From contig JAAILG010000353.1 of NCBI GenBank assembly GCA_012026655.1, forward strand, positions 1 through 64,000: DNA of 64,000 nucleotides. The letters run 5' to 3'. Origin of the DNA: Hydrolagus affinis (Eukaryota). Positions 22,561-59,124 of this stretch are shown piece after piece; within the stretch, counting starts at the first letter, position 1; every line of letters begins with the position of its first letter. Both the position numbers and the translations under genes were made by a program. The notes below the pieces were generated by a model. The model saw nothing but the letters and a program-made list of their open reading frames with translations. It had not been told where the DNA came from and did no database searches.

Positions 22561-22900
22561 TGTTTCTGCTGTCTAAAAGCTGTCTGTGCTATTATTCCAA
22601 GGACCTTCCGGATTCCTGACATGGGTTCATTTGTGCATTCGCAGCACATCTGCAGCAGGCATTATCTTGCGATCCGTTGATTTTATGCACACACAGGGCC
22701 AAGGTTCACCTTATTTACTACAAAACAGCTGGGTTAATTAAACTGGAAAGAGAAATCTACCTCATTCACCCCTGGCGCAGTTTATGACTACATTACCGGG
22801 TGGAATGCAGCAATCGTTTCTGCCTTTTATCATTGCAGTGCTTCATTGATCCCTGGTATTTATTTAAATTCCACATGATATTACTTACAGGAAACCTTAC

Positions 22901-22977
22901 CTGCGGTAGCACAGGAGAGTAACGGAATATACTTATGAATAAAACTGTTCGAGTTTCACATCCTGCTGTTCAAATAC
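22901..22977 (-). other. Candidate 77-nt non-coding exon
   Basis: tcctttcctgctag|GTATTTG...CTACCGCAG|gtaagg, with stops in all three frames. Confidence 0.25.
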
Positions 22978-23235
22978 CTAGCAGGAAAGGACATCGCCTC
23001 ATCTGTCGGTGAATTGTGCATAAATTATATAGGTTTTTTTTCAAACAATTGTGTTCAGTACAATGTCTTTCATAGGAATACTTGGCAGCTGGGTCCATCT
23101 AACCTGACCATTAAAAAAAAAGCGTCTTCGGGACCGAATGCAGGATGTCGTCAAGACAAGTCTGCCTCGATACGGTTAAAAAGGGCGTTCACCCTTTCAG
23201 GATCAAAACAGCATTTATTCGGTTGCTTTAGCCTG

Positions 23236-23310: not shown

Positions 23311-25192
23311 ACGCACAGACGTGCAGATTGAGACTGTTTTTGCTAAATGAAGAGTTACCATTCCTTGCGTTTGATAATGGTGCCTTTCATTTGATACGGG
23401 GGGACGTTTCAAATCGCTTGAGGTAGATTTACTGGAAGCGAACATCGTAACCAATTAGGTTTTGCTTTATTCAGATACCAAATTAAGTCTAATATGACAC
23501 AGTTCCCTTTAATTTCTGGGATTCATTTTACGCTGCTCCCGCGGTAAAAAATATATCCCAGTCACCTTAGCGTCCGTTGAGGGTTGGAAAATATAACCGT
23601 ATTGAAACCTAGAAAGAATATTCGGTGTTCAAAAGGATTTTACATCATTGGAAGTGCCTTGCAGTTGCATGTTGCAAGAAGTCAGACTGTCTCACTGCAG
23701 GCAATCTTTGAGAACATCTCTGGCTTTCCTTTCACTGTAAATACCACCACTGTTCTGTGGGTGTGATTAGTAACCTCACTCTCCACCTACACAAGTGATA
23801 CTTCCCACCAGTGGAAAAAAAACAAAATTTAGAAAACAAACGATGAGTTGTATTGGTTTAACATTGAAGACTTGACAGTTACGTTATCACAATACACTCA
23901 AAGGTCTATCAGAGGACAGATATCCACAACATATAGAGGAGCCCACGCAGGGAAATCTGGACACATATAACACTGACATAAAATAGCTTTGATTTTATTC
24001 CTAAGGCAGTTTTTGATGGGATTGTGAAATGGAAGATGTAAGTACAGTACTTGTAATATTGTCAGTTGATATGGCTTGTGTGCCCCTGTGGCTCATATTG
24101 AAGCATCTGAACGTGAAGTATTAGACACTGTAAAATAATCTTATCTTACCAGGTATACTGCAGTGTGAAAGATCCTCATCAACTCCCTCACACAGGACAA
24201 TACTTTTGAGGTAGCAATGTTTCTTCTCAGTGAAGAGCACTGCCATAATCCACTGTCTCTTGGAAGAAAGAAAGGACATCCCTAATTAACCATTTCAGAG
24301 CACAGGTATTATTGCTGATTTCAGTTAAAGGTGCGTCCATTTTCCTGAGAGTGTATTAAAAACAATTCTCTGCCCTGCCCTCAGTAACTGTAAGCATTTT
24401 AGATTTTGTTTGACCCCACTTTCATTTAAAAAAAATCTCTCAAAGAAATCTGAAAAGAAATCCGCTTCTCAGTCCAGGACTAAAAAAAAATACACCTTTA
24501 GTTTGGTTATGGGCTAATCTGTTTTGGATTCTCCAAAGAGCTTAGTTGAGTTTCTTTTAGGTGTAATTAGGAAATTCAAAACTTGGTGATGATAGGTTTA
24601 TGGGTGTAGGTGGGGTGGGGGGCTAGAAACTGCAATTTAATCCTTTCAAGAGATCAGAAGCAATACGCAACACTTATTTTTGTGCATTCAAAAGCTGCTA
24701 TCACTGTTCAAAATGTGAATTCTCGCCAAACACCGTAGTCTGTGCCATGTTTCTGCCATGTCGCAACGGGGCACAGTGATGTCAAATCAGTGCTTTAGGA
24801 GTTAACATCTTTTGTGACAAAAAAATGTAGTCAACTTGGAACACTGTGAAAAAAAATCATGAGCGGCTAGAAATTCCACCAGCGTAACTTCTGAATGTTT
24901 GTTTCCTTTAAAAGAGACATTGTGCTGATATGCATCAGTGCACTGAAGTTCAAAGTCTTTGGGGCCACTGGAAACAGGTCCTTTCCCTATTTATACTCGG
25001 ACAGCGCCAGGCCCTCTCTGTGTACCGTGCAGACTAGAGAATCACGAGACCCATTAGCTCACGTGAATCCACCAGTGACCACATGTCATGTGCAACCACA
25101 TCTCAGCCGATGACACTGATAGCAAGCAATGATCGAACAGCGGGGCCCTGGGAGGGTGTTGAAGAGAACACAGCAAAGAAGGTTTCTATGAT

Positions 25193-25318
25193 CCAAAGCG
25201 CAGGAAATCTGAAACAAAAACAGCAGTCGCTGGCAACACTCAGCGGGTCAGGCAGCATCGATGGAGAAAGGAAAAGTGAGTCAACGTTTCGGGTCCACGA
25301 CCCTTCGTCAGAACTTTG
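25193..25318 (-). mobile_element. Penelope-like (PLE) terminal-repeat fragment with a 13-bp TSD
   Basis: Flanked by aggtttctatgat at 25180-25192 and 25319-25331. Contains a hammerhead motif. Related decayed copy at ~47058-47240. Confidence 0.75.
25279..25315 (-). ncRNA. Minimal type-I hammerhead ribozyme motif
   Basis: Minus-strand RNA: AGUU-CUGACGA-A-GGGUC(GUG)GACCC-GAAAC-GUU-GACU. Core boxes, 5-bp stem II and stem I AGUU/GACU are present. Confidence 0.7.
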
Positions 25319-25699
25319 AGGTTTCTATGATAATCACTTCTGGGTGGGTGGGGTGGGGTGGGATGGGTTGGGGAGGGAGGTGAAGTGGTCAGCCCAAACA
25401 ATCCAATTGTCCGAGATCACGATACCACTAGTGGCACAGAACCCTGAATGTTTCACTCGCTCCAAAACCGTGAAGTTTCATTGCTTGCCTCGACTGAATC
25501 AGATTGGGTGCTTATTGGTCAGTCACTAGATGGCGCTTTGTGCTGAAACAGTGCCACCCCTTGGGGAAGAGGAAAGGGAAACTTAATGGACAAAGTGGTT
25601 GCCACGCTCACCTAATCGACTCCCGGTAGCAGATTGCGGAGTAACCTTGTGCACCCGGGTTCTAAATGTCTTTTCATTTCAACGGTTTCCCATTCATCG

Positions 25700-25935
25700 A
25701 TTAAACTCTCACTGCTATAGAGGGGATTGCTGGTCAGGACACCAGTAGATATTCCCTTCTCTTTTTCTAATAGAGCCATGGAATCATTAACAGACCCCGA
25801 ACAGGCAGATAGGACCTTGGTTTAACATCTCTTGATGACAACTCCTTCAATGCGTTTTTTTTCCCCCCGACGCTGCACTGGCTTGAACCCACGAGGTTGT
25901 GATTCAGAGACAAGACTGCTCCTGAGTGAGCGAGG
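25700..25935 (-). mobile_element. Old Deu-domain SINE
   Basis: ggtcaggacacc...gccatggaatc...gaacaggcagataggaccttggtttaacatctc...gctgcactggcttgaacccac is the reverse complement of the Deu domain and head. Confidence 0.72.
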
Positions 25936-28472
25936 CTGACGTGATCTCACTTCAGAAGTAAATAAACCCGATTTACACAGCCAGATTAGTGCTGTCGATA
26001 AAAATAATGCGAATCACGTCTATAGTAAATTGCTTCACTGAGAGACTTTCCACATCAGGATTCTATTGAAAGCAGCAGTTATTCAGTAGCTAGTCTATAA
26101 ATGTAACTTTGTTGTTGTTGTTGTAGTCCCAACAAAGTGGTGTGTGAGTGCCAAAATGACCATAGAATAAATATAGACATTTCAATGTGACTTTATCATC
26201 CCATTCTAAGCAGCAGAGCGGTCGTTGGTTTGATCATGTGTGTCTTGGCTGTTTCTTCAGGGACCATGGCTAGTTGAGGTCTCTCAACATTTGTAAAATA
26301 GAGGTTGCTAGGTAGGAAAATATTTATTGTTCCGCACATCGTCCTTGGTTTGTGTCTGAAAGGAATTCGAAGAAGTGAGCTTGTTTTGCACACATATAGA
26401 GGAGCAAAATAATGACTTAGGGATATCTCCTAGTAATTTTATACTCTCTGCAACACAGCCCATATAGTGTTCAAATTCTGTACAGTGTATATAGCAGATT
26501 AAATGTTCCACAATTGTCAAATCTGTGGTAAAATGTTGCATCTTAACCCCTTTGTCTCATTTTACTTACTATGCAACAAATGTAAAATAGAAATACATCT
26601 CTTGTCAAGATTACCCTCGACAGTAACAATTATTTTTCTCAGCGGTTGCAGCTCACAATAATACACGTCATATCCTTCAGACTCTTTGTCTGAGCTGGTG
26701 CTGAAGTCAGCATTTCTGTGATTATTTTTTCTCTCTTAAAAATAGGCTGGAAAATCAAATCTAAAGTTGTGAGACACAATATTAGATTTTTTCATTACTG
26801 GGAAAAATCCATTTGCACAACACTGGGTGTTGAGGACAAGCTGTGGACATATCATTGCACATTCAATGCTGATGAATGGTGGTAAAGGGTTGTTTTCAGT
26901 CAGCTGAGTCAAAAATAAAGGGAGATATTAAGTGAGGTTCCTCAGGAGTCTGTACTGGCATCCTCCCCTGTTTTGTGAGAGCAATAAAGAATGCCAAGGA
27001 AAAATTGCTCGGAAATTTTTCAGGGTTTCCACAAAAAGCACAACCCTGGGTGACCAGAGAAAAAACCTGTGGTTTATAAATAGAAGTTCGCACCATGTGA
27101 AAGGCTCTATATAAATGCAAATTGTATTGTGTATTGAAGGTAGCAAAGGGGAAGTAGATAATCTGAAAATTTACCAAGTTACGTGTATGGGAATTTATGG
27201 GAATTCATGTAGTGGGGGAACTTTCATGTAAATATTATTATCATTGCTCGGCTAAAGAACATGGTTATCATCAGCTTTTGGTCTCAGTGGGTTTAGAAAT
27301 TATATTAAGCTATCCCTCATGAACCTAATCAAATTATTCTGACACAAAATGACAAAACCAGCGTGTGAGATCTACTGTATACTGGAGTTAATTCACTTGC
27401 TTGTTGTTTCGAAAATGCATGCCGCATATTTAAAGAGGATGAAAGCTTGTTGAATAAGAGGCAAATTAGCTAGTTGGGATTGAAATCTGCTTCAGCAATA
27501 GGGACCAGAGGTGCTGACAAGTGATGACAGCTCCATCTGGAGAGTGGAAGCTAATGGAAGTCACATATGGAATATCGCAGTGGGAAATCGGGGAGATAGA
27601 AGCAATGCAGAAGGTTCAAAACCGAGAGACAATTTGAGTTTGAAGAACTTAGGGTCTTAAGAGCTCGAAGAGAGAGCGCGAGGGGAGAGGCTTTTTTGGG
27701 GAAAAAATGCTTCACATTCATAGTTTTCAAAATCAATCCAGATATGTCAACATACTCTTGTTACTGTACATCACTTTTCCATGAAAGCTGATAGTGATTG
27801 CAGAAAAAGAAAGGAAATCATTCATGTTGGAAAGCACCTGCAGACACTCTTTACTCCCAGTCACGTTATTCAAGCAATAACTTGCTAAATTTCATTTCCC
27901 ACAGACAAGCGTCAGTGTCTATAATCCTTAAACCCACATAACACGACAGTTCATTCTCCTGTCAGAACAAGGTCCTGATCTGAGTCAGAAATATTACCTG
28001 TAGTCAGTCTTTCCTATGTGTTAGGATGTACAGTATGGTATTATTACAGTGATATCCCTGCCTCCCTTTCATTTCTGACCTTCAGCACAGACCTGCTACT
28101 CTGTATGTCTCTGGACTGTCATTCACAAGCTGGCCAGCTGTAGGATTTTTGATACAACTGGGATTCAGTGCTGTTCAAGCATCTTGTTTCCTCTTCTACA
28201 GAATGAAGTAGTGGTCAAATACAAGGAGGTTAGGACTGACTCAGAATGCTCAAACAAACCAAAATGCTTCCATTAAATTGACAGGAGGGATTTTTCACAC
28301 GACTATTTGTGCTGTAGTATTCACCCAACTGCCCTGTGAGGAAGTTCCCCTTTACATGGTAACTGCCCGCAGTGACATGATTGAAATCAGGAACTCACTC
28401 CACACACAATGGAAAATTATGGGTGTTTAACCTCTACTTGCATCACAGCACAGTAATTCCCTGTTTCGCTCA

Positions 28473-47057: not shown

Positions 47058-47240
47058 AAGCAAAACTGTGAACGCTGGAAATCTAAAATACAAACAGAAC
47101 ATAATAATAATAATAATCCTTATATTTATATAGTGCTTTCCACGTCTTAAAGCGCTTGTTAGAAAACAGGTCAATCAGCGTGTTTGTGATGTTTGTGTGT
47201 AAATGAGAGACAGTCAATTTACTTACATGTCTTGGGAATT
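47058..47240 (-). mobile_element. Decayed PLE-like fragment split by a SINE tail (47101-47157)
   Basis: gctggaaatctaaaatacaaacag...caggtcaatcagc resembles gcaggaaatctgaaacaaaaacag...gggtcaggcagc at 25200-25260. Confidence 0.5.
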
Positions 47241-58796: not shown

Positions 58797-59124
58797 TCGT
58801 GGAGTCCTGTAGCTCAGTGGTTAGAGCCACTCGCCTTGCAAGCGAGAGACCTGGATTCGATTCCCATCTATGGAAAACCTTGGGCAAAACTTCCTGACTC
58901 CACATGCCTGATAATAATCCCTCAAAACAATAATCATAAATTGGTCACTTCGATCCACGACTATTTGTGGGACACTAATACGCACAATTGGCTGCCAAGT
59001 TTTGCACACAAAATATGCAGTCAATTCACTTTACAGTATATTCTGTGAAGTGCTTTGAGACATCTAGAAGCCATGGAAAGCTCTATATCAAATGCAAGGA
59101 TTATTATTATTATTATTATTATTA
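58797..59124 (+). mobile_element. Full-length tRNA-derived SINE with a long (TTA)n tail
   Basis: A box 58810-58820, anticodon-like hairpin ctcgc-cttgcaa-gcgag, B-box-like gattcgattcc, ccttgggcaa box, Deu part and tail. Confidence 0.92.

Follow-up and report, generated by a model that had tools for sequence, protein, structure and literature searches.

Minimal hammerhead ribozymes (min-HHRs) have been described in the pseudo-LTRs (pLTRs) of the fish Penelope-like elements (PLEs) Xena, Poseidon, and Neptune, and also as motifs dispersed through genomes (PMC4209133). Among sampled vertebrates, only Neptune and Poseidon PLEs have been reported. A CX2-5CxxC linker between the reverse transcriptase (RT) and the endonuclease (EN) is given as a trait of Neptune and Nematis (PMC8557442). 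According to the published accounts, single min-HHRs do not cleave and dimers cleave weakly (PMC4209133), eight of nine Xenopus dimers proved inactive in assays, and cleavage by an anole min-HHR needed protein (PMC11167929). An internal promoter has been placed within the pLTR of Drosophila virilis Penelope (PMC2377424), and Inr-like motifs are described in rotifer pLTRs. In vitro, an anole PLE protein is reported to cleave and extend both strands and to use unprocessed RNA (PMC11167929); head-to-head arms have been ascribed to self-priming on antisense RNA (PMC3846280).

The locus considered here is a 126-bp insert in the window, that is, the whole 64-kb stretch of DNA that was analysed. Very probably, it is the 5'-truncated pLTR core plus tail of an RT/GIY-YIG Penelope-like family, with its hammerhead a likely inert passenger. 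The original prediction had presented it as the best candidate for an under-described system, which was overstated, since min-HHRs left dispersed by truncated PLEs, as well as by solo pLTRs, by tails, and by inverted arms, are already in the literature. The under-described point is a narrower one: the 5' ends of copies pile up at the 5' edge of the hammerhead and not at its cleavage site, and this shared start may mark where the element RNA begins. None of the titles and abstracts searched concerned this repeat family or a 5' boundary at a hammerhead edge (subscription papers and repeat libraries lay outside the scope of that search).

The insert and its hammerhead motif

The features of the insert are collected in Table 1; signed coordinates are relative to the C of CUGACGA, with 0 at window position 25311 on the minus strand. 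As predicted, an exact 13-bp direct repeat surrounds 126 bp: AGGTTTCTATGAT stands at 25180-25192 and again at 25319-25331 and extends on neither side. Its interpretation as a target-site duplication (TSD) is supported by the family statistics given below, an empty site not being among the evidence. In a related organism (organism A), contigs enter the element from both flanks, as at a filled site, with about 1% flank divergence, a single difference in each TSD copy (25187 and 25329), and none listed at 25193-25258. The check for an orthologous empty site thus returned a filled one, and among the joints listed for four related runs, in only one of which contigs crossed the site, none skips the element.

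Table 1. Features of the insert in window coordinates, with the basis of each assignment.
Feature	Positions	Strand	Basis or remark
TSD, element 3' side	25180..25192	minus	exact 13-bp repeat
PLE tail to long 3' end, with ~16-nt internal deletion	25193..25210	minus	35/70 ends at +125..+135; alignment
Pseudo-LTR body to short 3' end (+82..+108, about 25229-25203)	25211..25278	minus	34/70 middle-anchored copies end there
Minimal type-I hammerhead	25279..25311	minus	sequence; traits described in PMC4209133; activity only predicted
Stem I 5' strand AGUU	25312..25315	minus	25315 = 5' end of this copy = family modal 5' boundary
Junction bases CAA	25316..25318	minus	mismatch to family upstream CCCC in alignment with RT-linked copies
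TSD, element 5' side	25319..25331	minus	reads ATCATAGAAACCT; exact 13-bp repeat and family TSD statistics

The predicted minus-strand hammerhead, with both boxes, its stems, a GUU triplet, and a palindrome, is likewise present in the sequence. CUGACGA (25311-25305) is followed by an extra A (25304), by a 5-bp stem II (GGGUC/GACCC with a GUG loop, 25303-25291), and by GAAA (25290-25287); the palindrome AACGUU (25288-25283) replaces helix III, the predicted cut falls after GUU (25283/25282), and the 3' strand of stem I, GACU (25282-25279), pairs with AGUU (25315-25312). The PLE min-HHR traits given in PMC4209133 are found (CUGANGA, GAAA, NUH, the extra base, G10.1-C11.1, the palindromic 15.2-16.2, and a 4-bp stem I), and the motif is the sole one of its kind on both strands of the 64 kb. 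It has no counterpart among the Rfam hammerhead models, which gave zero matches at E<=10 over 1.5 kb or at the gathering score over the whole window.

The repeat family and its parent element

In the genome searched (1.11 Gb, 245,464 contigs), exact matches to the hammerhead 32-mer, the tail 34-mer, and the middle 35-mer numbered 300, 860, and 1,298, respectively, and each reversed control gave 0; the hammerhead motif is therefore not a product of chance. A DNA search with the insert returned 1,873 candidates, 40 of which were scored, with top identities of 91-94%, and four related runs contained thousands of matching contigs. The insert repeat presumably resembles repeats of cartilaginous fishes. 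Sampling took the exact matches that headed the list and lay on the largest contigs, the tail set being the first 70 of the 860 matches and the middle set 70 from the first 100 of the 1,298 after the omission of four places that coincided in part with other loci or repeated them; copy boundaries were taken from local alignments and are blurred by a few bases. As the exact middle 35-mer occurs in 6 of 70 tail-anchored arms, the family was estimated by hand at about 15,000 arms (range roughly 7,000-40,000). The tail 34-mer was found in 0 of 70 middle-anchored copies, a figure left unused because that set was chosen by skipping overlapping places. The 108-kb contig (G000:C353) carries family pieces at 25200-25313, 47074-47099, 74162-74196, and 86928-87202, all four on the minus strand, a small number for which chance would give 1 in 8.

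Longer copies pass upstream through a pyrimidine-rich stretch toward an ORF. Among 29 loci anchored on this stretch, a GIY-YIG frame is reached by seven (E<=2e-4), and one locus (L107) combines such a frame with RT motifs. A C-x4-C-x2-C linker precedes the endonuclease in five of seven family copies examined for it, the other two having the first Cys changed. A genome search with an RT piece gave 151 matches, 20 of which, selected for long frames and contigs, were fetched. The repeat lies downstream in the same orientation in 17 of these 20 RT-bearing stretches, 14 of the 20 showing the order RT, GIY-YIG, repeat; it is absent downstream of RT in L179 and L187, and L183 stops at the contig edge. 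The Pfam scores of these decayed RT and EN pieces all lie under the curated cut-offs (E=0.0014 for P0002 against PF01541; E=2.7e-6 for the RT piece P0004 against RVT_1), and the RT piece has 783 longer homologues at E<=1e-20, most listed with PF00078, PF28514, or PF26215 and some with PF01541. Since longer copies reach an RT and GIY-YIG ORF with a Neptune-type linker, the insert is assigned to the pLTR core and tail of an autonomous PLE, the parent clade being, by the linker motif, likely Neptune. The predicted origin in a PLE terminal repeat is thus borne out by the ORF-linked, upstream-extended copies, and the genome-wide comparison of copies that had been proposed found preferred 5' and 3' ends, TSDs, and adjoining RT/GIY-YIG sequence, with no tandem arrays seen.

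Sequence of the pLTR occurs 3' of the ORF and, in L175 and L182 only (2 of 20), also leads into the ORF 5' end. In both, the 3' end or tail of the repeat continues into the N-terminal region of the ORF, as expected from internal starts of reverse transcription (PMC11167929), and both begin downstream of the hammerhead. An intact ORF or a complete 5' pLTR-ORF-3' pLTR copy was not found, every ORF seen being broken; an upstream copy in L173, considered as a 5' pLTR, has a TSD of its own and was inserted independently. A sister subfamily, 82-89% identical to the insert, seems to account for most of the 20 RT-bearing stretches, and the window's subfamily, as judged by eye, includes L184, L190, and the 29 loci anchored on the upstream stretch. 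The sister subfamily (L171, L186, L188, and others of L171-L190) has diagnostic bases at +51, at +74, and in the tail, and makes up 16 of 58 long versus 7 of 99 short arms, shares biased by the anchors used in sampling.

Genomic loci with Pfam GIY-YIG matches were also considered as parents and rejected, as 0 of 20 fetched (of 24 matches) carried the repeat; they belong to another PLE family. The loci L061-L080 represent a second GIY-YIG family whose copies are near-identical. Behind them come TAACCC-like repeats of telomeric type or a satellite of the CCGTCGGACT type, no hammerhead motif lies within 450 nt, and the family is possibly a younger, subtelomeric PLE.

The 3' ends of the copies are bimodal: in the middle-anchored set, 34 of 70 lie at +82..+108 and 35 of 70 at +125..+135 (the references stopped at +135), so that two ends stand about 35 nt apart. 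TSDs of 8-16 bp flank 58 of 137 copies (3 of 140 loci were dropped for a short flank or N) versus 1.9% of 2,716 shuffled pairs. Single-arm 5' ends (n=69) cluster at -12..+1 (35) over +2..+45 (14; p=4e-12), with 16 upstream of -12 and only 2 at the cleavage site, +27..+31. Extension upstream past -20 is seen in 18 of 140 sampled copies, and the contiguous upstream match stops at -4 in 34 and at -3 in 31 of 147 arms, a count that includes loci picked for the hammerhead. Head-to-head arms are present in 71 of 140 copies, and the inner ends of these inverted arms (n=71) show the same preference (38 at -12..+1; 0 at +27..+31). The two arms overlap by more than 10 nt of element sequence in 69 of 71 copies, TSDs surround the whole two-arm insert in 37 of 71, and the two-arm copies of the middle set (n=36) join a long and a short end in 28 cases, two long ends in 1, and two short ends in 2. 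The family therefore displays both the optional tail and the inverted 5' arm, which are PLE traits. In alignment, the window copy, itself without an ORF, spans -4 to the long end, minus about 16 nt of tail, and is thus a modal single-arm copy; its end at 25315 corresponds to the A of an Inr-like CCAGTTC in longer copies. In the contigs of related organisms, strand switches at 25312-25319 account for 10 of the 15 joints listed; loose-end peaks at 25315 in the related runs were left unused, as the window copy ends there and longer copies add to them.

Large inverted 5' arms, including GIY-YIG or UTR sequence, give the long copies L172, L180, L190, and L178 the same head-to-head layout on a larger scale. 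Separately, close to the short 3' end, window 25194-25230 on the minus strand (+85..+135) contains CTGAC, a pyrimidine tract, and TTTCAG, which together look like a 3' splice acceptor; intronic copies in sense orientation could serve as cryptic acceptors.

Origin of the short copies and fate of the hammerhead

In the scheme preferred here, the element RNA would start at the Inr-like A (-4/-5) inside an upstream pLTR, a step held on the sequence to be slightly better than an even bet; from such a start it would follow that the RNA opens, at its 5' end, with the hammerhead. The initiator consensus is YYANWYY, which CCAGTTC fits. Element protein would nick the target with an 8-16 bp stagger, and reverse transcription would begin inside the RNA at +98 or +133. 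Copies keep the hammerhead, from which the RNA template is taken to have been uncleaved; such RNA, copied to its 5' end, would yield the modal copy of about 135 nt, that of the window among them, and longer copies would derive from read-through RNA. Extension from both nicks, for which the chances appear evenly balanced, would produce two overlapping cDNAs and hence head-to-head copies with the tail on one arm, and inserted copies would then decay neutrally. L1 twin priming gives complementary halves, unlike the overlapping arms of this PLE family. At -5, G occurs in 16 of 34 (p=0.004, post hoc) alongside A in 15 of 34, a weak hint at cap copying; no good DPE match was seen by eye. A splice acceptor at CCCCAG/TT, tried as the cause of the 5' boundary, was set aside, no constant upstream exon appearing in the junction list.

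A bolder extension of the scheme, offered tentatively, is that the hammerhead lies at the extreme 5' end of a capped RNA, where cleavage, by dropping a 33-nt capped leader, would decide whether the RNA serves as mRNA or as template, and that internal priming would make of this leader a SINE-like cassette of about 135 nt in some 10^4 copies with no non-autonomous master. If true, the overlapping arms, the long and short ends, the shared -4 stop, and the outer TSD would together represent two cDNAs made from both nicks and not antisense self-priming.

The foremost alternative, though rather unlikely, is that the -4 boundary marks a preferred point, at stem I or the C-rich tract, where reverse transcription stops or is resolved, or reflects self-priming on antisense RNA, and involves no transcription start. 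The upstream tract is C-rich and pyrimidine-rich, as this account would have it, and many two-arm junctions are short palindromes, the basis of the antisense model (PMC3846280). A hairpin block, however, would be expected 3' of the hammerhead and not beyond its 5' edge; both arms end at the same place, the TSDs enclose entire two-arm inserts (37 of 71), and priming at two sites on sense RNA is described in vitro for a Poseidon element (PMC11167929).

The original prediction had further seen in the insert a discretely mobilised, ribozyme-bearing unit, of which the fairly discrete character, seen in the preferred ends, and the TSD stand, whereas the separate non-coding unit, or mini-retrozyme, is not supported. 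A separate non-autonomous unit of about 135 nt (a SINE-like solo pLTR master or a retrozyme monomer), perhaps passing through circles and moved by PLE protein, would account for the sharp modal 5' and 3' ends and for the rarity of upstream extension (18 of 140 copies), and pLTR-derived retrozyme monomers have been reported from vertebrates. It is nonetheless improbable, given how closely short copies match upstream-extended ones in their commonest letters and in identity. When 84 short copies were set against 37 long ones from one subfamily, no diagnostic fixed column separated the classes, nor was a non-coding lineage apart from the ORF-bearing elements found; identity is 0.850 and 0.854 within the classes and 0.852 between them, and the three columns that differ in frequency (p<0.01) all do so toward more change in long copies. 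Two same-strand arms occur at 3 of 116 loci, 390-660 bp apart and none tandem, although a short-read assembly may collapse arrays. With regard to the tandem arrangement of retrozymes, the window site has a single hammerhead, and 0 of 116 loci in this fragmented assembly are tandem. The cleavage site is not where copies begin, and no permuted form came to notice in the ends sampled. The absence of diagnostic differences between short and long copies, the lack of tandem arrays among those seen, and the neutral decay of the core all argue that this is not a separate retrozyme.

That decay was followed in 157 arms unselected for the hammerhead, in which the core, contrary to what a working ribozyme unit had been predicted to show, is no more conserved than downstream sequence (non-CpG divergence of 3.8% versus 6.6%, p=0.14). 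Its CpG positions are changed in 24% (G8) and 26% (G12) of arms; both boxes are intact in 64 arms, the boxes and palindrome in 25, and the exact 32-mer in 1. Among dispersed copies, the core decays neutrally. The idea of a subfamily with compensatory changes in stem II did not survive a count of variants in these 157 arms, the pair +12/+16 being U-A in 4 and C-A in 4. Double variants at +11/+17 are C-G in 6 of 8, two being duplicates, a change that transitions favour anyway. Measured against the column yardstick, the window copy shows 5 differences versus a median of 9, with none in the hammerhead, whose four CpGs are kept. Given 300 exact copies in the genome, this intactness is best explained by ascertainment, an intact hammerhead (carried by a few per cent of copies) probably being the reason that the window copy was noticed. 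Low local methylation, proposed for the intact CpGs, finds no support, flank CpG o/e being at the window median.

Folding places the active dimer at -14.5 and the dimer MFE at -28.3 kcal/mol, a gap of about 14 kcal/mol, and the pairing probability in local context is about 0.58 for stem II and <=0.08 for stem I; the hammerhead is likely silent at this site. The host transcript that had been postulated, with exons about 2.3 kb away, was left unconfirmed by a splice-pattern scan, Pfam, and long frames. The scan gave no gene, nor did the long frames over the 108-kb contig, and Pfam, run on 132 frames free of stops (131 of the 143 that were listed within 17-34 kb, and one more at 15 kb), reached a best E=0.017, with none above the cut-off. 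Cleavage of host pre-mRNA through a second copy is similarly unsupported, the dimer fold being unfavourable and the 108-kb contig holding no intact partner, as its one other hammerhead-reaching copy, 62 kb off, lacks CUGANGA and is joined only by two tail fragments. That the window copy works as an intronic ribozyme, perhaps a co-opted one, cutting host pre-mRNA through another copy or a protein is highly improbable: its hammerhead is wholly intact, CpGs included, it is better preserved than average, such that local selection is conceivable, organism A shares the insert with the divergence noted above, and PLE hammerheads can be protein-assisted (PMC11167929), yet about 300 equally intact copies make intactness expected somewhere, no intact same-strand partner lies within 108 kb, the fold and the weakness of stem I are adverse, the host-exon scans gave no exon, and published single min-HHRs stayed uncleaved, with dimers cleaving little and most Xenopus dimers inactive.

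Three further features of the window deserve record. A CpG-rich, non-repeat segment on the minus strand (22790-23180) contains several short AG/GT-bounded segments without a Pfam match, which may represent micro-exons; a conserved non-coding element is the other possibility. At a distance of 400 bp from the insert, a different high-copy repeat (25711-25950) is marked by a peak in depth and by loose ends at 25799 and 25831. A tRNA-like Rfam match of 33 bits on the plus strand (58805-58875) may be a SINE head.

Taken singly, the locus is of little weight, being one of numerous dispersed PLE ends. The family, by contrast, is a natural data set in which thousands of simple, TSD-flanked insertions map both starts of reverse transcription and a sharp 5' stop. 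With it, two questions become testable: the position of the RNA start relative to the hammerhead, and the origin of inverted pLTRs in two-nick priming or in antisense self-priming. The family also carries a warning: in genomes of this sort, most min-HHR motifs that stay intact have survived neutrally and are no evidence of host regulation.

Comparison with known systems

The family is most like the EN+ PLEs of the Neptune clade, with which it shares RT, the C-x4-C-x2-C linker, and a GIY-YIG domain at the C terminus (PMC8557442), and like EN+ PLEs as described more generally, it has a min-HHR pLTR, 5' truncation, an inverted 5' arm, an optional tail of 30-40 bp, and TSDs of about 8-16 bp. Unlike described Neptune elements, about three quarters of the copies sampled here begin inside the hammerhead or adjacent to it, their starts peaking sharply at -4/-3, and no intact ORF was found. 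The anole Poseidon element PAc resembles it in the two internal 3' ends that bracket a tail about 100-135 nt past the hammerhead, in copies of uncleaved RNA, and in the extension of both strands, the last two being deduced here from genomic copies; PAc, however, belongs to the Penelope/Poseidon clade and has an ORF that runs from stem II, whereas the conserved ORF sequence of the present family begins downstream of the tail (PMC11167929).

Animal non-LTR retrozymes (PMC7229834; bioRxiv 10.64898/2026.07.22.740005) are likewise short, non-coding, and pLTR-related, with a type-I hammerhead, dispersed monomers, and TSDs of more than 4 bp. As described, they form tandem units, each with a canonical hammerhead, whereas the hammerhead here is minimal and no tandem copies were seen; moreover, the same sequence here ends ORF-bearing copies, and the cut site is not the point where copies begin.

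Lastly, an Inr-like motif or a start inside the pLTR is shared with Adineta vaga Penelope (PMC3846280) and D. virilis Penelope (PMC2377424), the latter having an intron between the start site and the hammerhead. The Adineta element is also similar in its solo pLTRs, head-to-head arms, and tail on one side. Its inversions are ascribed to antisense self-priming, and its solo pLTRs are few and partly ascribed to recombination or deletion (PMC3846280), whereas those of the present family number in the thousands and carry TSDs.
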